The notes: generated from the sequence alone by a model not told the origin. A stretch of 64,000 bases of DNA from Promethearchaeota archaeon (GCA_048938105.1 JBHLMN010000009.1:160001-224000), one strand, 5' to 3'; positions 7,705 through 15,288 are shown, counted from the first letter of the stretch. Program-made: numbers and translations.

Positions 7705-8874
7705 TTGGAACACAACCAAACTCAAGATTTATCTTCTTTTTATTCTGCATATCAACTCCTTGTAAGAACAGCCAAAAGAACCGTTAATTCTATAAATGAA
7801 AATCCACCTTGTCTGGTTGAATTCTGTAAAACACTTGAGGAAGCGAAAGAAAAGGATAAAAGAATTCATCTCGTTGGGATGGGCAGATCAGGGAAAGTAG
7901 GTATGTTACTGGGAGAATTATTGAAGAATGTTGGTTATAAAGTATCATATTTAGGCAAAAGTTTAGCTAAACCAGTCCGAATGGATGATGTGGTTATTGG
8001 TATCACTGGTTCAGGATGGACTAGCTTCACTATAAATACATTGCAAGAATCTATTAGTAGAGGCGCAAAAATATTAGTTTTTACTGGTGATCAATATTCT
8101 TTAGCTGCTAGATTAGCGGATTCGATAATTCTTATCCCTAGAGGTTATATAAAGGAAAAATTCGCACCTGTTTCTCATGCACCTTTGACACCTGTTTCTC
8201 ATGCTCCTTTAACACCATTGGGTACAGTTTTTGAAATGACTACAATGTGTATCGGAATTGGGGTAGTTTTAGGATTAAGAGACGAATCATCTGTTAAAGG
8301 ATTCAACGAAAATGTGAATGAAGTGTTAAGAGCAGCAGAAATGACATTAAACAATATTAAAAGAAGTGAAAAGCCTTTACAACAGTTTATCACACTCCTT
8401 GAAAGTTATTCTGGCCATTCAAAGAGGAAGCTATTTGTATTCGGTAGTGGATTCGATTCGATTATTGCTAGTATTTCTTCTATTCGATTAAGTCATTTAC
8501 GTATTAATTGTAAATCTAATTATGATTGGAGATTTAGAAGTAAAGAGGATCTATTAATTGGAATCTCGGGGTCAGGTGTGTCTACAAGTACTTTAGAACG
8601 TGTTGAGAGTGCCAAATCTGCGCATATGAGTATAGTCGGGTTAACATCCTTTCCAGAATCAAGATTAGCAAAAGAATCCGATATTGTCCTAGAAATTGAA
8701 GGCAGAACAGAGAAAATTAGTGCTGATTTACATCAGATTTCAAACCTTAGTTTTTTAATTCCATCATTTGAGTATTCTGCTGCGATAACCCTAGATGCAT
8801 GCGTTGCTCAATTAGCAATGGATTTAGGGATTAGTGAAACAGAAATGAAAGAAGAACACGCCAATATTGAATGA
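7705..8874 (+). CDS. hxlB: 6-phospho-3-hexuloisomerase (PHI) with two tandem SIS domains
   Basis: Domain 1 GMGRSG, TGSGWT, PLGTVFE; domain 2 RLSHL, ISGSGVS, C-terminal HANIE (PHI signature); GGAGA RBS before TTG. Confidence 0.8.
   Translation: MEHNQTQDLSSFYSAYQLLVRTAKRTVNSINENPPCLVEFCKTLEEAKEKDKRIHLVGMGRSGKVGMLLGELLKNVGYKVSYLGKSLAKPVRMDDVVIGITGSGWTSFTINTLQESISRGAKILVFTGDQYSLAARLADSIILIPRGYIKEKFAPVSHAPLTPVSHAPLTPLGTVFEMTTMCIGIGVVLGLRDESSVKGFNENVNEVLRAAEMTLNNIKRSEKPLQQFITLLESYSGHSKRKLFVFGSGFDSIIASISSIRLSHLRINCKSNYDWRFRSKEDLLIGISGSGVSTSTLERVESAKSAHMSIVGLTSFPESRLAKESDIVLEIEGRTEKISADLHQISNLSFLIPSFEYSAAITLDACVAQLAMDLGISETEMKEEHANIE
8165..8216 (+). repeat. In-frame 24-bp tandem duplication (PVSHAPLT x2) inside PHI
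   Basis: cacctgtttctcatgcacctttga / cacctgtttctcatgctcctttaa, two mismatches. Confidence 0.9.
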
Positions 8875-8879
8875 GCGGA

Positions 8880-9161
8880 TTATCCACCAGCTAATACTGG
8901 AAAAAATGATACATCACAGTTCTTATCGAGAATAGTGTTTAATCCATCCAAAGCATGAATATTTCGGCCATCTATGAGTATTGTCAATCCTTTCTTTAAT
9001 TCATCATTCTCTATGAAAAAAGAGCTTCCTCTTTCCCCTTTTTTGGATTGAAATAGATCAAATACTTGCTGTAACCTTATTGGTTCTTCAACTGTAATAT
9101 TCTGAGTCTCACCTAACTCAGTCTGTAGAATAGCAAAGAATGAGAGCTTAATCGTGATCAT
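8880..9161 (-). CDS. MoaD/ThiS/SAMP ubiquitin-like sulfur carrier
   Basis: Beta-grasp size, ILIDGRNI, C-terminal FPVLAGG di-glycine; start overlaps upstream stop (TAATG). Confidence 0.9.
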   Translation of the reverse strand: MITIKLSFFAILQTELGETQNITVEEPIRLQQVFDLFQSKKGERGSSFFIENDELKKGLTILIDGRNIHALDGLNTILDKNCDVSFFPVLAGG

Positions 9162-9811
9162 TAGTCTTTTCTCTTCAAGATCACTTCTTTAAGATGTTGA
9201 GTGGCTTGTTGCGGATCTGCTGATCTAGTAATAGCAGAACCAACAATTAAGATATCTGCGCCATATTCAACCGCTTTAGGAATAGTTTCCGCCTTCAATC
9301 CGCCCGCTACTGCAATAGGAATCTTGATTGTTTCCCTTAATTTCTTTAATGTGGGAAATGGAATTTTATCAAAATCTGAACGCAATTGTTGGTCAATACC
9401 AATATGTAATCCAATGATATCGACTCCTAGTTTTTCTAAATGAATAGCTCGGTTGATAGGATCTTGGACGCCAATAAGATCTGCAAAGATTTTAACATCA
9501 AATTTCTTCCCTGCCCCAACCGCATCTTTAATAGTACTATCAGGAGCTATCCCTAAGATGCAAATAACATCAGCACCTGCTAACGCAGCCATCTCTGTTT
9601 CTAGGTAGCTAGCATCCATTGTTTTGAGGTCTGCAACAATTATTTTATGAGGAAAAAGCTCTCGTAATTTTCGTACAGATTCCATACCAGTAGCTTTAAT
9701 CAATGGAGTTCCTGCTTCAATCCAATCTACTCCTCCAAGTGCACTTTTTTGAGCAATTTTAAGCGCCTCATTGAGATCTCTGAGATCTAAAGCGATTTGT
9801 AGTTTTGTGCT
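9161..9811 (-). other. hxlA: 3-hexulose-6-phosphate synthase domain of the AOR-HPS fusion
   Basis: OMP decarboxylase/HPS TIM-barrel motifs in frame with AOR, no intervening stop. Confidence 0.85.
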
Positions 9812-11734
9812 GGTTTGAATAGGTTGAATGGATAGTTCTTTTAATTTACGCTCTGAAGGGACACCCAATTCATCCCAACCGCGGATGTGATAATATTCCT
9901 TGAGAAGATTGTGAATATTTACTTTGTGACCTTTTGCTGGCCCTTCAGGTAATGGTTCATTCAGAAATCTTGGGGAGAGATTATCATGGTCTCTTGTTAG
10001 CCCTTCTCGGATATTAAATAAGCGTTCTAAATTATAAATTCTTTCACCAATTCTTTTTAATTCTTTTTCATCAATATAAAAACCAGTAGCAGTAGTTAAA
10101 AGCTTCGCATAGATATCAACCTCACACTTTAATGTTGTGAATACCGCCAATGATGTGAATTTGCACCATTCAGCTGAATCTAGTACTGCAAATACATCTT
10201 GCATTTCTTTAACCAATTCTGCTTTTCCTTCCTCAGTAAAGGGATCAACAAAATGAGGTAAGCTTAAAACCTCTTGAATAACCGTATAACCTTTTAAATG
10301 AGTTCCCCCACTGTTTGAAGTGGCATAACTTAGTGCCATCCCTTTAATCCCTCTTGGATCATATGCAGGCATTTCAAGTCCTTTAACATGACAGGCAAAT
10401 GATTGTGATCCCTTCCCAATCCGTTTAGCGGCTTTTTGTACTCCATTCGCTAATAAATCACCCTCATCCTTCCTAATAGCAATATTTTCGATTAATGATA
10501 GTAATGCTTGACCATCTCCAAATGATATAGAGTTAGATATAATTCCTTTGTCACAACACTCCATGAACCATCCAATAGTATTCCCTGTAGAAATAGTATC
10601 TAATCCAAGTTGGTTACAAAGAGAATTGGCTTTAAAAATGGTTTCTAAATCGCTTATACCACAATTAGGACCTAATGCCCATAAAGATTCAAATTCAGGA
10701 CCGTGTGTTTCGATATCTTTATATTTCATTATACGACCGCAGGCAATAGGACACCCATGGCAAGGTTTTCTCTTTACTAAATATTCCTTGAGGGTTTCTC
10801 CTGCTATTTCACGCACATTCCCGAAAATGCCAGTACTGTAATTTCTTACAGGGAGAACCCCGTGTTTGTTGACAATATTAACTAGAATAGGCGTACCATA
10901 CAATCTCATCCCTGTTCCCGTCACTGGGTGACCCTTCAAGGTTTCTATGAATTTCATTTGGATCTTTTGAAACGCATATTCGTTGACAGGCATAACTTTA
11001 CCAGATCCATGAACAACAATAGCTTTGAGATTTTTTGAACCCCATACTGCTCCGATACCCCCTCTACCTGCGGTTCTTGTGTCATTGATAACACAAGCAA
11101 AATGTACTAAATTTTCTCCTGCTGGGCCTATCGCGGCAACAGAGTGATTTGTATGGATCTCTTTTAGTATTTTAATTGTTTCATTTATTGTTTTGCCCCA
11201 CAAACTCGAAGCATCTTGAATGGAAACGTTATCATCATCAACTAAGAGATATACAGGAGTTTTTGACGAATTCTCAATAATAATCCCATCATAACCAGCA
11301 CGTTTCAACTCAATTCCTAATCTACCACCGCAATGAGTGTCATTTAATGTTTTTTCAGTTAAAGGGCTTTTGAAAATCATACACCATCGAGACGAAGTTG
11401 GAGAAGTAGTTCCTGTCATTGGGCCCGTTAAGAGCACTAGTTTGTTATCGGGACTTAACGGATCTATTCCTGGTTTTAGTTCATCATAAAGGATTTTAAT
11501 ACCGTAACCTCTTCCTCCAAGGTATTTTTGCGCAGTATCGAGGTCTAATGGTTCCTTTTGGATTTTTTTTGTCATTATATTGATTCTTAAAATCTGTTTA
11601 GCATATGTCAGTGTTTTAACCCACCATTGATCTCCTATAATACTTACATAATTCGATAACAACGCCTCATGAAAATCTTGTAATGATTTATAAAAGAAAT
11701 TCACTCTTTCTAAAAAATTCAATAGCTCTCTCAT
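9161..11734 (-). CDS. Tungsten aldehyde:ferredoxin oxidoreductase (AOR/FOR family) fused to C-terminal 3-hexulose-6-phosphate synthase; true start uncertain (homology begins near 11610)
   Basis: AOR motifs YLGGRG, GRGGIGAVWGSKNLKA, CHGCPIACG, GLDTIS, KGLEMPAYDPRG; last ~216 aa LQIALD, IEAGTPLIK, ADLKTMD, HIGIDQQ, AVAGG, IVGSAIT (HPS). Confidence 0.9.
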   Translation of the reverse strand: MRELLNFLERVNFFYKSLQDFHEALLSNYVSIIGDQWWVKTLTYAKQILRINIMTKKIQKEPLDLDTAQKYLGGRGYGIKILYDELKPGIDPLSPDNKLVLLTGPMTGTTSPTSSRWCMIFKSPLTEKTLNDTHCGGRLGIELKRAGYDGIIIENSSKTPVYLLVDDDNVSIQDASSLWGKTINETIKILKEIHTNHSVAAIGPAGENLVHFACVINDTRTAGRGGIGAVWGSKNLKAIVVHGSGKVMPVNEYAFQKIQMKFIETLKGHPVTGTGMRLYGTPILVNIVNKHGVLPVRNYSTGIFGNVREIAGETLKEYLVKRKPCHGCPIACGRIMKYKDIETHGPEFESLWALGPNCGISDLETIFKANSLCNQLGLDTISTGNTIGWFMECCDKGIISNSISFGDGQALLSLIENIAIRKDEGDLLANGVQKAAKRIGKGSQSFACHVKGLEMPAYDPRGIKGMALSYATSNSGGTHLKGYTVIQEVLSLPHFVDPFTEEGKAELVKEMQDVFAVLDSAEWCKFTSLAVFTTLKCEVDIYAKLLTTATGFYIDEKELKRIGERIYNLERLFNIREGLTRDHDNLSPRFLNEPLPEGPAKGHKVNIHNLLKEYYHIRGWDELGVPSERKLKELSIQPIQTSTKLQIALDLRDLNEALKIAQKSALGGVDWIEAGTPLIKATGMESVRKLRELFPHKIIVADLKTMDASYLETEMAALAGADVICILGIAPDSTIKDAVGAGKKFDVKIFADLIGVQDPINRAIHLEKLGVDIIGLHIGIDQQLRSDFDKIPFPTLKKLRETIKIPIAVAGGLKAETIPKAVEYGADILIVGSAITRSADPQQATQHLKEVILKRKD

Positions 11735-11853: not shown

Positions 11854-12966
11854 TTGTACGCGGATTATAATGAAAAATTAGCGAAATTAATAGCTCAATA
11901 CGCTGTAAATGTCCAACCAAACGATCTTGTAATGATCCAAGCTCCAATTAATGCAGAAAATCTTGTCAGGGAAGTTTATAGAGAGGTTATACAAGCAGGA
12001 GGTCACATTCTAAGGATGAAGCTTTCATTCGATAGTCAAGATGAAATGATGTATAAATTAGCTACTGATGAACAACTGACATACGTTGACGACCTTGAGG
12101 TAGAATACTGGAAAAAAGCAGACGTCCTGATAGCTATTCACTCTGATTACAATACTCGAGCTTTAACAAATGTCCCCGCAGAGAAAAAAGTAATGGTGAG
12201 ACAAGCTCGAGAGGAGATTACTAAAATATATCTTGAAAGAGCCGCAAAGAAGGAATTGAGATGGAATTTAAGTCCATACCCTTGTGATGCATTTTCTCAA
12301 GAAGCAAATATGGGGAGACTAGAATACTTAGAATTCGTATATAAAGCACTGAATCTGCATCAAAGTGACTCTATAGAGTTTTGGAAACGTATTGAAGCAA
12401 ATCAAGAAGACATTGTTAATATTTTAGACAAAGGTAAAGAATTCCGGATTATAGGAGAAGATACCGATTTAACATTAGCGATTGAGAATCGTAAGTGGAA
12501 AAATTGTTGTGGCCATGAGAATCTTCCTGATGGGGAGGTCTTTACAGGACCACATGAAGATGGGGTAAATGGAAACATAAGATTCACATATCCTGGAATA
12601 TATGAGGGACAAGAGGTTGAGGACATCTTTTTATCCTTCAAAGAGGGTAAAGTTGTGGACTTTGACGCTGCAAAGGGAAAAGATCTCTTAAAGAAGATGC
12701 TTACCATCCCAAATGCGAATATTCTCGGAGAGCTGGCCGTAGGAACTAATTTTGGTATAACTAAATTTACTAAGAATATGCTTTTTGATGAAAAAATGGG
12801 TGGAACCATTCACCTTGCCTTAGGCTCTGGTTACCCTGAAACTGGTTCAAAAAACCAATCATCTATTCATTGGGATATACTAAAAGACATGAAAGGTTCT
12901 GAAGCAAAAATTCTTCTTGATAGTGAGGTTATCTATCAAGCAGGAAAGTGGTTAATTCCTAAATAA
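11854..12966 (+). CDS. Thermophilic metalloaminopeptidase, M29 (AmpS/PepS)
   Basis: NLPDGEVFTGP, LGELAVG, LFDEKMGGTIHLALG, SSIHWD. Confidence 0.92.
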   Translation: MYADYNEKLAKLIAQYAVNVQPNDLVMIQAPINAENLVREVYREVIQAGGHILRMKLSFDSQDEMMYKLATDEQLTYVDDLEVEYWKKADVLIAIHSDYNTRALTNVPAEKKVMVRQAREEITKIYLERAAKKELRWNLSPYPCDAFSQEANMGRLEYLEFVYKALNLHQSDSIEFWKRIEANQEDIVNILDKGKEFRIIGEDTDLTLAIENRKWKNCCGHENLPDGEVFTGPHEDGVNGNIRFTYPGIYEGQEVEDIFLSFKEGKVVDFDAAKGKDLLKKMLTIPNANILGELAVGTNFGITKFTKNMLFDEKMGGTIHLALGSGYPETGSKNQSSIHWDILKDMKGSEAKILLDSEVIYQAGKWLIPK

Positions 12967-12972
12967 ATCTAA

Positions 12973-15288
12973 TTATGATAGATGAATAACCTCACCACTT
13001 TGAAGAGATTTGAGAGCTGCACAAGCCACTCGAAGGGCCAATATTCCATCTTGAATGGGTATTGGACTTGGGTTATCATTCAATATAGCCTTAGCGAAAG
13101 CACTAACTTGTTCAACAAAAAATGGGAGTTGATCAATTTCTTCAAAAGTAGGTTCAGATCCATCCAATTCTGTATTCTTGATTGAGGGTTGCTTGGAGGG
13201 ATCAATTCTGATTGTACCATCTTCACCATAAATTATCATTCCAGTATTGCTTCCTACCTGATCTGTTAGATCTGGTTCAGACCAAGATGCTTCAATAGTA
13301 ATAAGGACTCCAGATTTTGACCGAAGACTAATTTGCACTGTATCCCAGGTTTTTATTTCGGGATAAACTCTATTTGAGCCAATTGCATAAACAGTTGTTA
13401 TTGGATCAGCAGGCCCTAGAAACCATTGCACTAAATCAATATCATGGATTGCTAGATCGACAGCTATTCCTCCACTTTTTGTTTCATCCCAAAACCACTT
13501 AGAAGAGGGAGGACCACGACCCCGACGATGAGCATGAATAGAAACTATGGGGCCAAGCTCGCCTTTGTCAATTACCTTTTTTGCTGCAGAATAATGGGAA
13601 ATGAACCGACAAATCATTGCAACCATTAATTTAACATTATTGTCTCGTAATATTCCTGAAATTTCCTCTAATTCATCCGGATGTAACAAGATGGGTTTTT
13701 CACATAAGATATGTTTCCCTGCCTTTGCTGCAGCAATAATATATTTCTTATGTACAAAGGTTGGAACACAAATCGATACTGCTCTCAATTCAGGGTCTTG
13801 AAGGGCTTCTAGATAGTTTTCATAGATGTTAATCACTCCAAAGAATAAAGCTGCTCCTTGAAGGGCTAATGGGTTTCTGGTAGCTATTGAATGTAATTCT
13901 GTCCAAGAACAAGCTGAGTATGCTGCAGCATGTATTTGGCCAATTCCCCCTAATCCAATTATACCGACTTTTAAGGGATTCATGACCTTTGGAACATCTT
14001 TAATGAGTTCCTGAATTTTTGGGGTTGTACCTGTAGAAATCATGGTTCCAATGATTCTACTCTCAATTTCTAGATCAATATTCAGAATTATCTCCATCTC
14101 TTGAAGAAATTTCGCTGCCACTAATGATAATTCAATGTAGGATAATTGATGCCAATTGGGAAGCCCAATGATGTTTTCAGCTATTTTATCAGTATTAGGA
14201 CAGTTTGGTTCGTTGTAGACTGCTTCCTCCTCCAAAAAAGGACATGTAAACGGACATTTACGTTCCCCGTATCCCTTTTGTTCTTGGAAAAGAGGAGAAG
14301 TATAGAGACCAGCGGGATAAATCAATTGAGTGATCTGAAAGTCACGGTTCAAATGGTCAGCTAATTCTTTCCCAGTCATTCCAACAATTGAAGGATCAAT
14401 TTGGATTGCATACGCATGAAAAACATGTTTTCCATACTCTGGTACTTGAGGTAATCTTACTCCTGGGATGTCTTTTAGTAGTGAATTTAAGTATAGAGAG
14501 TTTTTAATCCGCCCTTCGTTCATTTTTTCAAGTTTTTTTAACTGTTCTATCCCTATAGCTGCTTGTATCGTTGTCATTCGATAATTAAATCCTAATCTCT
14601 CATATTTATACCAAGAAGGCTCCCCATGATGTCTAACCAATCGACATTGTTTTGCAAAATCGTCATCATCAGTAATTATAATACCACCCTCTCCTGTCAT
14701 CATATTCTTTGATTCAAAGAAACTGAAACATCCCGCTTTTCCAAGACTCCCCACTTTTTTTCCTTTGTATTCAGCCCCATGAGCCTGACATGCATCTTCA
14801 ATTACTATAAGATTATGTTGTTGAGCAATTTTAATAATGGGATCCATATCTGCAGGATGACCAAAAAGATGTACAGGAATAATAGCCTTGGTTCGATCTG
14901 TTATTTTATTTAGCAAATCAGTAGGATCCATACAAAAGGAAGTTGGATCAATATCTACAAACACAGGAATAGCATTTTGATGTAACACAGCAGTTGCTGT
15001 GGCAACGAAGGTATATGGAGGGATTAAAACCTCATCACCAGCCCCTACTCCAGCAGCAGCTAAAGACGCATGTAGTGCAGCTGTTCCAGAACTAACAGCT
15101 ATAGCTTGCCTAATATCCATGTAGCTGGCGAAATCAGCTTCAAATTCTTCAATTTCAGTACCACTCATGAATGTCAATCGTTTATTGCGCATTACTCTTT
15201 TTACAGCAAGAATTTCTTCCCGTTCTACTTTACGATCCATTGGAAATAAATCGTGTGGTTTAATTTTACGAGTCATAAACGCACTCAA
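12973..15288 (-). CDS. DegT/DnrJ/EryC1/StrS PLP aminotransferase fused to Gfo/Idh/MocA NAD(P) oxidoreductase
   Basis: SSGTAALH, IEDACQAHG, SFFESKNM (PLP Lys); then GIIGLGGIG Rossmann motif, LCEKP, DLAIHDID. Confidence 0.9.
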   Translation of the reverse strand: MSAFMTRKIKPHDLFPMDRKVEREEILAVKRVMRNKRLTFMSGTEIEEFEADFASYMDIRQAIAVSSGTAALHASLAAAGVGAGDEVLIPPYTFVATATAVLHQNAIPVFVDIDPTSFCMDPTDLLNKITDRTKAIIPVHLFGHPADMDPIIKIAQQHNLIVIEDACQAHGAEYKGKKVGSLGKAGCFSFFESKNMMTGEGGIIITDDDDFAKQCRLVRHHGEPSWYKYERLGFNYRMTTIQAAIGIEQLKKLEKMNEGRIKNSLYLNSLLKDIPGVRLPQVPEYGKHVFHAYAIQIDPSIVGMTGKELADHLNRDFQITQLIYPAGLYTSPLFQEQKGYGERKCPFTCPFLEEEAVYNEPNCPNTDKIAENIIGLPNWHQLSYIELSLVAAKFLQEMEIILNIDLEIESRIIGTMISTGTTPKIQELIKDVPKVMNPLKVGIIGLGGIGQIHAAAYSACSWTELHSIATRNPLALQGAALFFGVINIYENYLEALQDPELRAVSICVPTFVHKKYIIAAAKAGKHILCEKPILLHPDELEEISGILRDNNVKLMVAMICRFISHYSAAKKVIDKGELGPIVSIHAHRRGRGPPSSKWFWDETKSGGIAVDLAIHDIDLVQWFLGPADPITTVYAIGSNRVYPEIKTWDTVQISLRSKSGVLITIEASWSEPDLTDQVGSNTGMIIYGEDGTIRIDPSKQPSIKNTELDGSEPTFEEIDQLPFFVEQVSAFAKAILNDNPSPIPIQDGILALRVACAALKSLQSGEVIHLS

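Follow-up and report, generated by a model that had tools for sequence, protein, structure and literature searches.

An aldehyde oxidoreductase fused to a 3-hexulose-6-phosphate synthase in uncultured archaea: a candidate formaldehyde-oxidising enzyme of pentose biosynthesis

The window analysed here, a stretch of DNA 64,000 nucleotides long from an archaeon, contains a gene in which a module of the tungstopterin aldehyde:ferredoxin oxidoreductase (AOR) family is joined to a predicted HPS (3-hexulose-6-phosphate synthase) module. A small MoaD/ThiS-like gene follows on the same strand, its ATG sharing one base with the TAA of the fusion gene (TAATG). A tandem-SIS, PHI-like gene converges on the MoaD-like gene, with a 5-nt gap between the two stops. 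The coordinates are collected in Table 1.

Table 1. Genes, modules and smaller features of the AOR-HPS locus, with positions counted from the first letter of the window
Feature	Position	Strand	Details
AOR-HPS fusion gene	9161..11734	(-)	one open frame, 857 aa, ORF including stop, no internal stop; Asgard (Hodarchaeales-like) archaeon
N-terminal extension, reality uncertain	11606..11734	(-)	residues 1-43; low pLDDT
AOR module	9827..11605	(-)	residues 44-636, ~590 aa
Six-residue insertion VFTTLK	10127..10144	(-)	residues 531-536, just past the fourth Fe-S cysteine
HPS module (predicted)	9164..9814	(-)	residues 641-857; E673, D702, K704, D707, H777; HPS-type D752, I780, A810
MoaD/ThiS-like gene	8880..9161	(-)	93 aa, C-terminal Gly-Gly (..LAGG); PF02597 4e-08
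Two tandem 24-nt copies (PVSHAPLT x2)	8167..8214	(+)	disordered loop in the N-terminal SIS half
Tandem-SIS, PHI-like gene	7705..8874	(+)	389 aa; N half with GRSG, SGSG, PLGTxFE

Three Pfam domains were found in the translated fusion: AFOR_N at residues 47-243 (E-value 2e-77, 260 bits against a gathering cut-off of 29.8), AFOR_C at residues 259-636 (1.8e-141, 472 bits against 27) and OMPdecase at residues 643-846 (5.6e-34). The NCBIfam model for HPS, TIGR03128, scored 214.2 bits over residues 645-852 (cut-off 200), which puts the HPS module at about nucleotides 9164-9814. A preliminary description of this DNA, made from the sequence alone, had read here one uninterrupted frame coding for both enzymes and had placed the HPS domain at 9161-9811; the domain matches agree with it on both points. 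Only about eight residues separate the end of the AOR module (..ELSIQ, residue 636) from the first HPS strand (KLQIALD, residues 644-650). The AlphaFold2 model of the protein (pLDDT 91.5, pTM 0.88) is a rigid two-module structure with a confidently predicted linker, which points to a fixed arrangement of the two modules.

The first ~42 residues of the frame are not conserved in most homologs, whose start reads M-[TA]-Y-A-K. The true start of the fusion is uncertain because the codon matching the start of the homologs is CTG in this gene. Candidate starts are the ATG at 11734, the TTG at 11662 and a non-canonical start near 11611. Translation from near residue 42 would give a protein of probably ~816 aa; homologs with the same three Pfam domains span 806-842 aa.

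We observed the same architecture in one continuous frame in ~105 protein clusters from independent assemblies (NCBI, JGI, ENA and Logan). The distribution of the domain combination, a check that the preliminary description had proposed, extends to several archaeal lineages; the carriers include Hodarchaeales, Thermoplasmata, Bathyarchaeia, Hadarchaeia and Methanomethylicia-class genomes. The fusion is widespread in uncultured archaea. Among 41 genomes sampled from the class to which a Methanomethylicota MAG belongs (Methanomethylicia-class), 25 carry it, and among 150 Asgard genomes sampled it occurs in 7, from only three families; three genomes of the host's own genus lack it. A closed 4.94-Mb genome carries the fusion with an identical gene order. 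Given this closed genome, the 7 Asgard and 25 Methanomethylicia-class genomes and the continuous frame in so many clusters, the chance that assembly or gene calling wrongly joined two neighbouring genes is negligible. The AOR modules of the fusions make up one clade (support 99; 44 against 78 rows), as do the HPS modules (support 95), and the subclades of the two trees match. Since each module forms a single clade, the fusion arose once. Judged from these sequences, the fusion is genuine, conserved and of single origin. No published description of it was found in the literature searched, in line with the earlier remark that none was known.

The assignment of the C-terminal domain was examined at the level of models, residues and structures. 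The models of KGPDC gave 83-103 bits (cut-offs 250-294) and those of pyrF 34-52 bits (cut-offs 92-208). The metal and catalytic residues of the OMPDC suprafamily, mapped onto KGPDC and HPS structures, are E33, D62, K64, D67 and H136 of KGPDC; they correspond to E673, D702, K704, D707 and H777 of the fusion and are invariant in 90 fusions. Positions 112, 139 and 169 of KGPDC correspond to D752, I780 and A810, which are of the HPS type (Asp, small hydrophobic, Ala) and match the changes E112D/R139V/T169A of the engineered KGPDC entries 1xbx/1xbz. In structure comparisons, HPS entries scored 125-218 bits compared to 64-75 bits for KGPDC. With TIGR03128 passed and HPS-type residues at the three specificity positions, a KGPDC or OMPDC identity was rejected, and the domain is by these criteria a 3-hexulose-6-phosphate synthase, as had been proposed.

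The AOR module retains the active-site residues of Pyrococcus furiosus AOR, as mapped onto 1AOR. The [4Fe-4S] ligands C288/C291/C295/C494 are C325/C328/C332/C524 in the fusion, the catalytic Glu313 and His448 are E349 and H479, and the pterin-motif residues D343 and D489 are D379 and D519; none of the eight varies among 90 fusion proteins. The first pterin-motif aspartate (Asp338 of P. furiosus AOR) is replaced by asparagine, N374 here and Asn in at least 90% of fusions. An insertion at the position of VFTTLK occurs in at least 90% of 44 fusion AOR modules, while among 71 stand-alone AORs at least 99% are gapped in the columns of F532 and T534; in this alignment it is a fusion-clade-specific feature. 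The module is 42-44% identical to P. furiosus AOR and the bacterial AORs 9G7J, 9MQX and 8C0Z, and its model superposes on 9mqx/9g7j/1aor with TM scores of 0.95-0.96. The four cysteines, the Glu313/His448 equivalents and the pterin-motif aspartates matching D343 and D489 are shared with these solved AORs, which differ from the fusion in the C-terminal HPS, in the substitutions K290 and E538, in the Asn for Asp338 and in the six-residue insertion.

P. furiosus FOR (1B25), which has the same family and fold, catalyses the very reaction proposed below for the AOR module. In the comparison with both enzymes, however, the module turned out to be of the AOR type and not of the FOR type: 1AOR gave 543 bits at 44% identity compared to 360 bits at 35% identity for 1B25, and the fusion clade nests in the tree among P. 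furiosus AOR-like sequences. Membership in the FOR subfamily was rejected on these grounds, and the module is assigned by sequence to the AOR family of tungstopterin aldehyde:ferredoxin oxidoreductases. Being nearer to the broad-specificity AOR than to FOR, its sequence gives no sign of formaldehyde specificity; we know of no formaldehyde-specific AOR signature that could serve as a test here.

The MoaD-like protein matched PF02597 with 34 bits (cut-off 22.5) and fell below the cut-offs of the curated models for SAMP1 (37.7 against 60) and moaD_arch (34.2 against 49.5). Such a gene adjoins the fusion in 10 of 14 fusion loci. It is not tied to the fusion, since 27 of 67 stand-alone AOR loci have one no more than 6 kb from the AOR gene. 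The overlap with the fusion stop, as first described, is real, while a role peculiar to the fusion system did not hold up. At least four of the six ThiS-family genes in the host genome are located within ~3 kb of an AOR paralogue, a pattern of paralogue-specific companions rather than of one housekeeping MoaD. Small proteins of ThiS fold with a Gly-Gly end, like the one beside the fusion, are also encoded beside other AORs, for example by aorD of Aromatoleum, which we take to be MoaD-like. In the Aromatoleum aor cluster, aorD and aorE were co-expressed with aorABC to obtain recombinant AOR (PMC10413684). Most likely, the MoaD-like gene next to the fusion is a cofactor-maturation companion of the AOR family and stands outside the catalytic scheme.

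The convergent gene had been described as a tandem PHI. Its position and the 5-nt gap were confirmed, but the PHI model TIGR03127 reached 131 bits over two stretches (76 and 58 bits for the separate halves), short of the curated threshold of 160; the gene is accordingly PHI-like and not a certified PHI. In the C half SGSG, PSFE and a terminal HANIE are retained, but GRSG is missing; residues 150-172 have a pLDDT below 50. Both halves match PHI structures best, and a profile of the family scored 64-108 bits against PHIs in the PDB compared to at most 41 bits against any other SIS family. Of the characterised SIS families, PHI is by these matches the nearest. Unlike known PHIs (TIGR03127; 1VIM, 1M3S, 1JEO), the protein has two SIS domains per chain with the motifs divided between the halves, and its likeness in fold to double-SIS isomerases of the GlmS/NagB-II type is loose (TM 0.6-0.7, 12-15% identity).

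The tandem-SIS family occurs almost exclusively in Asgard archaea. Its gene adjoins the fusion in G138, G135, G101, L022, L102 and L033 (our handles); the adjacency is seen among Hodarchaeales relatives, in three arrangements, and in a Hadarchaeia MAG. In another lineage a canonical PHI (185 bits) is located 2.5 kb downstream of the fusion; in all, three distant lineages have a PHI-type gene next to the fusion. The tandem-SIS gene is not the sole PHI candidate in the host, since a canonical single-domain PHI (C53:102716-103243, 164 bits) is found 57 kb away; it is the sole candidate in three sister genomes that carry it beside the fusion, where no canonical PHI was detected.

In archaea that lack a pentose-phosphate pathway, HPS and PHI operate in the reverse direction, and AOR-family enzymes oxidise formaldehyde with ferredoxin. 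In the host genome, which is 99% complete, neither transketolase nor G6PD was found, RpiA is present, and the fusion is the only HPS because the sole other OMPdecase match resembles pyrF. Therefore, the fused HPS is the only visible pentose route in the host. Fae was not found in this genome either, and this fits the earlier proposal of a formaldehyde disposal different from the Fae/H4MPT route. None of 11 fusion-bearing genomes tested had Fae, compared to 101 of the 150 sampled Asgard genomes; the statistics of this complementarity are weak, since the seven Asgard fusion genomes fall in three families and 12 of the 27 sampled families lack Fae anyway. Some relatives have a second, stand-alone HPS beside the fusion. 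Nor is the fusion obligatory, since many archaea without Fae get by with a separate HPS.

We propose, with a probability of about 0.65, that the protein is a bifunctional enzyme of pentose biosynthesis by the reverse RuMP route, with the AOR module turning the formaldehyde released by HPS into formate while reducing ferredoxin. A PHI-type isomerase (the neighbouring tandem-SIS protein, the canonical PHI found at another place on the contig, or both) would convert fructose-6-phosphate to D-arabino-3-hexulose-6-phosphate. The C-terminal HPS module would cleave this hexulose phosphate to ribulose-5-phosphate and formaldehyde, and RpiA would turn ribulose-5-phosphate into ribose-5-phosphate. The attached tungstopterin/[4Fe-4S] module would oxidise the formaldehyde to formate and pass two electrons to ferredoxin. 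In this scheme we infer what the AOR module acts on, which way the flux runs and that ferredoxin is the acceptor; formaldehyde may also pass directly from one site to the other, i.e. be channelled.

The preliminary description had also considered the opposite direction, with the AOR module reducing formate to formaldehyde at the expense of reduced ferredoxin and HPS condensing it with ribulose-5-phosphate, a C1 fixation. AOR-family enzymes are reversible in principle, a favourable condensation could pull the unfavourable reduction, close linkage of the modules would hold down the level of free formaldehyde, and the adjacent PHI-type genes would fit as well. A RuMP cycle, however, must regenerate ribulose-5-phosphate via transketolase and transaldolase, and no clear transketolase was found in nine fusion-bearing genomes tested (the host and eight others). 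Moreover, the host must run the cleavage to obtain its pentoses, as a further HPS and both the oxidative and the non-oxidative pentose routes are missing. We therefore consider operation as an assimilatory cycle quite improbable.

Somewhat less improbable, yet still unlikely, is that the modules are co-expressed without functional coupling or act on other substrates, for example aldehydes of amino-acid fermentation and, for the HPS-like module, a different aldol substrate. Joining the modules would in that case do no more than set their stoichiometry or stability. The affinity of the AOR module to broad-specificity AORs and the 13 AOR paralogues of the host are compatible with this. On the other hand, after one fusion event the modules have remained together in at least four archaeal phyla or classes and have kept every catalytic residue, the AOR clade has an insertion and substitutions of its own, and the short linker is modelled with confidence. 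Formaldehyde is, besides, the sole aldehyde made by an HPS, and the residues of the module are of the HPS type.

Two known HPS fusions were compared with the proposed formaldehyde-oxidising enzyme, with which they would share a role in the reverse RuMP route. The HPS-PHI of Thermococcales (NF041755; PDB 9LJ9) is the closest solved relative of the HPS module (218 bits, 51% identity, rmsd 1.7 Å). It has no built-in disposal of formaldehyde; in the present system HPS is C-terminal to AOR and the PHI-like protein is encoded by a separate tandem-SIS gene on the opposite strand. In Fae-HPS of methanogens and other users of H4MPT (NF009833), as here, HPS is fused to a formaldehyde-consuming module, and the protein presumably supplies pentoses while the partner takes away formaldehyde. 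That partner, however, is an N-terminal Fae that condenses formaldehyde onto H4MPT, while the partner in the fusion is a tungstopterin/[4Fe-4S] oxidoreductase of ~590 aa; the products would be methylene-H4MPT in the one case and formate with reduced ferredoxin in the other. Searches with Pfam and NCBIfam found no Fae domain in the fusion protein, and NF009833 gave only 147 bits for the HPS module compared to 259 bits for NF005442 (HPS of HPS-RraA-like proteins). Membership in Fae-HPS was rejected, as neither the protein nor the genome has a Fae domain, and the analogy is functional only.

If the proposed reading is correct, toxic formaldehyde would be removed where it is made, the unfavourable cleavage would be pulled forward and low-potential reducing power would be recovered. 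The fusion would then be a functional analogue of Fae-HPS for archaea without an H4MPT route.

Pfam located three domains in the product of the fusion gene: AFOR_N at residues 47-243, AFOR_C at residues 259-636 and an OMPdecase-fold domain at residues 643-846. The last of these was recognized as HPS (3-hexulose-6-phosphate synthase) by the NCBIfam model TIGR03128, whose cut-off of 200 bits it exceeded with a score of 214; with the KGPDC and pyrF models it fell far short of the respective cut-offs. Only about eight residues link the last helix of the aldehyde:ferredoxin oxidoreductase (AOR) module to the first strand of the HPS module. Checks of the ORFs with Pfam and NCBIfam bore out the preliminary description in both the position and the character of the fusion, the MoaD-like gene and the gene with two SIS domains.

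Coordinates of the fusion gene, its neighbors and related features of the window and the host genome (C, contigs of the host or of the genomes named; G106 and G118, genomes of the same genus; L, loci)
Feature	Location	Strand	Remark
AOR-HPS fusion	9161-11734	(-)	single 857-codon frame without interruption
N-terminal extension of the fusion, 42 residues	11606-11734		absent from most homologues
MoaD/ThiS-fold gene, 93 aa	8880-9161	(-)	Gly-Gly end; starts within the fusion stop codon (TAATG), directly downstream
Two-SIS protein, 389 aa	7705-8874	(+)	ends 5 nt from the MoaD-like gene
Tandem 24-nt copies in the two-SIS gene	8167-8214		encode PVSHAPLT twice
DegT/DnrJ-Gfo/Idh/MocA fusion, 771 aa	12973-15288	(-)	counterpart at L102:2430-4730
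Canonical single-domain PHI of the host	C53:102716-103243		on the window's contig, 57 kb upstream
Second two-SIS PHI-like paralogue of the host, 381 aa	C48:~12690-13835 (L019:1363-2505)		more divergent
Further MoaD/ThiS-like genes of the host	C14:212596, C2:59494, C42:124608, C6:~234104		near AOR paralogues
Convergent tandem-SIS gene and HPS-like ORF	G106:C152:21534-23315, G118:C57:151142-152911		255-aa HPS-like ORF
Stand-alone HPS gene	L022:3955-4620, L103:8827-9492		after the MoaD-like gene
Fusion variant with two HPS modules	L031:425-3418		~990 aa

The start codon of the fusion is uncertain because the first ~42 codons have no counterpart in most homologues and the position homologous to the start in relatives is a CTG codon here. 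An AGGAG motif is situated just upstream of this homologous start, followed only by ATG and GTG codons that are out of frame. The window holds another fused gene, in which a DegT/DnrJ-type sugar aminotransferase is joined to a Gfo/Idh/MocA oxidoreductase; it is kept at the same position in a closed relative genome.

A search for protein clusters (at 90% identity), with the fusion junction and the HPS part as the query, produced ~105 clusters in which a single chain of 806-842 aa combines AFOR_N, AFOR_C and OMPdecase. The sequences originated from NCBI, JGI, ENA and Logan assemblies and were labelled Hodarchaeales/Heimdallarchaeota, Thorarchaeota, Thermoplasmata, Methanomethylicaceae, Nezhaarchaeales or Thermoprotei. 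In CP070695.1, a closed 4.94-Mb Heimdallarchaeota chromosome, the fusion is 82% identical to that of the window, and the gene order is shared as well (DegT-GFO fusion, M29 peptidase, AOR-HPS, ThiS, 389-aa two-SIS protein, C69 peptidase). The junction proposed from the window is genuine and is present in related genomes; independent assemblies and a closed chromosome with the same gene order leave practically no room for reading the fusion as an artefact. Within the window's phylum, whole-genome scans detected the fusion in 7 of 150 sampled genomes, of which four (the host included) belong to the window's own genus and three to two other families. In the class to which a Methanomethylicota MAG belongs, 25 of 41 sampled genomes had it. 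Public annotation gives these proteins one of two names, 'aldehyde ferredoxin oxidoreductase' or '3-hexulose-6-phosphate synthase'.

We also observed several variants of the locus. Some fusions, ~990 aa long, have an AOR module followed by two HPS modules in tandem (clusters P0037-P0042 and the locus L031). Two genomes of the same genus (G106 and G118) have no AOR-HPS fusion; there the tandem-SIS gene converges with an HPS-like ORF that has 30% identity to the fused HPS. Two loci of relatives (L022 and L103) carry a stand-alone HPS gene of the Fae-HPS type (NF009833 scores of 147 and 246 bits, respectively) besides the fusion, so these clusters have two HPS genes.

Among the 122 AOR modules placed in a tree (44 fusion and 78 stand-alone rows, the latter from archaea and bacteria, host paralogues included), the 44 fusion modules made one clade with support 99, nested within the group of P. 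furiosus AOR-like proteins. The fused HPS modules also formed one clade (SH-aLRT 95, with only 13 unfused rows as contrast), and its internal groups were the same as in the AOR tree. The fusion clade has a specific insertion of six residues (531-536), in which F532 and T534 are invariant; it follows the fourth Fe-S cysteine directly, at a site where a gap is found in at least 99% of 71 stand-alone AORs. Residues K290 and E538 are further marks of the clade. Since each module makes a single clade and the AOR modules of the fusion have these marks of their own, the fusion arose once, was kept and spread over distant archaeal lineages, which suggests that selection favored keeping the modules joined.

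Both modules appear catalytically intact. We aligned 90 full-length fusions and matched their residues to those of P. furiosus AOR. The [4Fe-4S] ligands C325, C328, C332 and C524 (C288, C291, C295 and C494 of P. furiosus AOR), the active-site residues E349 (E313) and H479 (H448), and the pterin-motif residues D379 (D343) and D519 (D489) are invariant among all of them. Only one of the mapped cofactor and active-site residues departs from P. furiosus AOR, namely Asn374, at the position of Asp338. The AOR module is closest to the broad-specificity AORs, with 543 bits for 1AOR and ~530 for 9G7J and 9MQX, and is farther from formaldehyde:ferredoxin oxidoreductase (FOR; 1B25), whose 360 bits rule out membership in the FOR subfamily. 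In the HPS module, E673, D702, K704, D707 and H777 (E33, D62, K64, D67 and H136 of KGPDC) are invariant as well. Asp752, Ile780 and Ala810 occupy the positions mutated in the engineered KGPDC 1xbx/1xbz (E112D/R139V/T169A) and follow the HPS pattern. The C-terminal domain is therefore an HPS, as had been proposed; identity with KGPDC or OMPDC, either of which would have undone that proposal, is ruled out by these residues together with the TIGR03128 score.

Many archaea make pentoses by running HPS together with 6-phospho-3-hexuloisomerase (PHI) in reverse, with the release of one formaldehyde for each pentose made; in methanogens, Fae-HPS traps this formaldehyde on H4MPT. We know of no settled answer as to how formaldehyde is handled in archaea that do not have this route, and a full-text literature search found none. 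Just two OMPdecase-fold genes occur in the host genome (5.85 Mb, 99% completeness, 7% contamination), and since the second one is pyrF-like, the fused HPS is the host's only HPS. Neither Fae, nor a transketolase N-domain, nor G6PD was found in this genome, while RpiA and one TAL/FSA-family protein are present. This leaves one visible route to ribose-5-phosphate, from F6P to hexulose-6-P and then to Ru5P plus formaldehyde, and an H4MPT-dependent sink for the formaldehyde is missing. Fae was likewise found in none of 11 fusion-bearing genomes (seven Asgard genomes and the Methanomethylicota, Hadarchaeia, Hecatellales and Thermoprotei MAGs). The comparison with the 101 of 150 genomes of the Asgard sample that do have Fae is weak, because the Asgard carriers belong to only three families and 12 of the 27 sampled families have no Fae anyway.

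The best supported reading, to which we assign a probability of about 0.65, is that the fusion is a bifunctional enzyme of pentose synthesis combining HPS cleavage with formaldehyde oxidation by the AOR module, with ferredoxin as the acceptor. The HPS module would cleave hexulose-6-phosphate and release formaldehyde, which the attached AOR would oxidize to formate, passing the electrons to ferredoxin. Such an oxidation would detoxify the product, pull the cleavage forward and save two low-potential electrons. The fusion would work much as Fae-HPS does without belonging to the Fae-HPS family; we would place it with bifunctional HPS fusions that couple the release of formaldehyde to its removal. 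The opposite, assimilatory direction, with formate reduced and fixed, is improbable since no transketolase that could regenerate Ru5P was found in the host. No convincing transketolase was found in eight further fusion carriers either, which makes a cyclic, assimilatory RuMP pathway less likely. It is also unlikely, though less so, that the two modules are joined with no functional coupling or that the AOR acts on a different aldehyde; such a reading is hard to square with one ancient fusion event whose modules have both stayed intact across phyla.

Coupling by oxidation may or may not involve physical channelling, for which the HPS barrel would have to be docked rigidly on the AOR, with an internal path leading formaldehyde to the tungsten site before it equilibrates with the cytoplasm. 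An AlphaFold2 model of the fusion made from the 90-row alignment had a mean pLDDT of 91.5 and a linker pLDDT of ~86, and its pTM of 0.88 over 593 + 217 structured residues implies a confident predicted placement of the two modules relative to each other. A complex prediction of residues 44-636 against 641-857 (88-row alignments, without controls) gave an ipSAE of 0.00 in both runs, which has no bearing either way. None of the solved structures in a Foldseek search with the full model covered both modules; the best TM normalised to the query was 0.68. If formaldehyde were channelled, the six-residue insertion beside the Fe-S cluster could be a part of the interface or tunnel. We regard channelling as a tentative and rather doubtful extension of the bifunctional reading.

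The name 'tandem PHI' given to the neighboring gene holds in part. The protein does have two SIS domains, and its profile matched PHI structures best (9LJ9 108, 1VIM 101, 1M3S 71 and 1JEO 64 bits, compared to at most 41 for other SIS families), but its score with the curated PHI model TIGR03127 was 131 bits, under the cut-off of 160. The family counts 77 clusters, nearly all labelled Asgard and mostly Hodarchaeales or Heimdallarchaeota. Each half has its own set of motifs, conserved in the family (clusters P0124-P0200). The N half retains GRSG, SGSG and PLGTxFE. The C half has no GRSG, retains SGSG and PSFE, and has its own invariant DWRF and a terminal H-A-N-I-E. With GRSG and PLGTxFE confined to the N half, and DWRF and the terminal HANIE to the C half, this split of PHI motifs suggests a single-chain pseudo-dimer with one putative composite active site. 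In the predicted structure (pLDDT 86.6, pTM 0.87) two domains form a compact body whose overall arrangement resembles the GlmS/NagB-II-type double-SIS isomerases only loosely. The tandem 24-nt copies of this gene encode a loop that is disordered in the AlphaFold model; the protein is no longer or shorter than a homologue with 96% identity.

Three fusion-bearing sister genomes (G138, G135 and G101) have no canonical PHI; in each of them the tandem gene adjoins the fusion, and two different arrangements occur among the three. In a Hadarchaeia MAG a tandem form (26% identity) follows immediately downstream of the fusion, and a further fusion lineage carries a canonical PHI (185 bits) 2.5 kb downstream. 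HPS- and PHI-type genes are thus recurrently linked, and the tandem-SIS protein is probably the best PHI candidate in most Hodarchaeales. For the host itself this assignment is not exclusive because its contig also carries a canonical PHI scoring 164 bits with TIGR03127, above the cut-off. The host has a second two-SIS paralogue as well.

The MoaD-like gene, on the other hand, had been counted as a component of the formaldehyde system, and this view has to be given up. A profile built from the copies adjoining fusions detected the gene at 10 of 14 fusion loci, but also at stand-alone AOR loci of bacteria and archaea, where 27 of 67 had one within 6 kb of the AOR and in many cases directly downstream. 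The host has 13 AOR-family paralogues, and at least four of its six ThiS-family genes are located ~3 kb or less from one of them, which suggests companions specific to individual paralogues rather than one housekeeping MoaD. A special role in the fusion system is therefore ruled out: the gene is a general companion of AOR-family genes with no specific bearing on formaldehyde, and most plausibly serves cofactor synthesis or insertion.

Asgard archaea include the closest relatives of eukaryotes, and Methanomethylicia are methyl-reducing. To our knowledge, the physiological substrates in the AOR family are mostly unclear. Two Hodarchaeales strains have reportedly been isolated; the main text of a preprint on cultured Hodarchaeales makes no mention of hexulose, pentose or aldehyde metabolism. 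The full-text literature search found no description of the AOR-HPS architecture, in agreement with the preliminary description. The closest paper found, on Brockarchaeota, proposed that separate AFOR and RuMP enzymes handle formaldehyde (PMC8065059), and Asgard AORs and RuMP have been discussed separately (PMC11291895).

The fusion occurs in lineages of broad interest (Hodarchaeales, Methanomethylicia, Bathyarchaeia and Hadarchaeia), and metabolic reconstructions that now list the gene as 'AOR' or 'HPS' would shift with a correct annotation. The conserved covalent union of HPS with a ferredoxin-linked AOR offers a concrete, testable answer as to how formaldehyde is disposed of without H4MPT, from which a housekeeping role for one clade of the AOR family would follow. 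Should channelling of formaldehyde prove true, the enzyme could be used as a scaffold for engineered C1 metabolism, an AOR clade would have its first defined physiological substrate, and there would be an explanation of how archaea free of H4MPT, among them the closest relatives of eukaryotes and Methanomethylicia, escape being poisoned by their own pentose synthesis.
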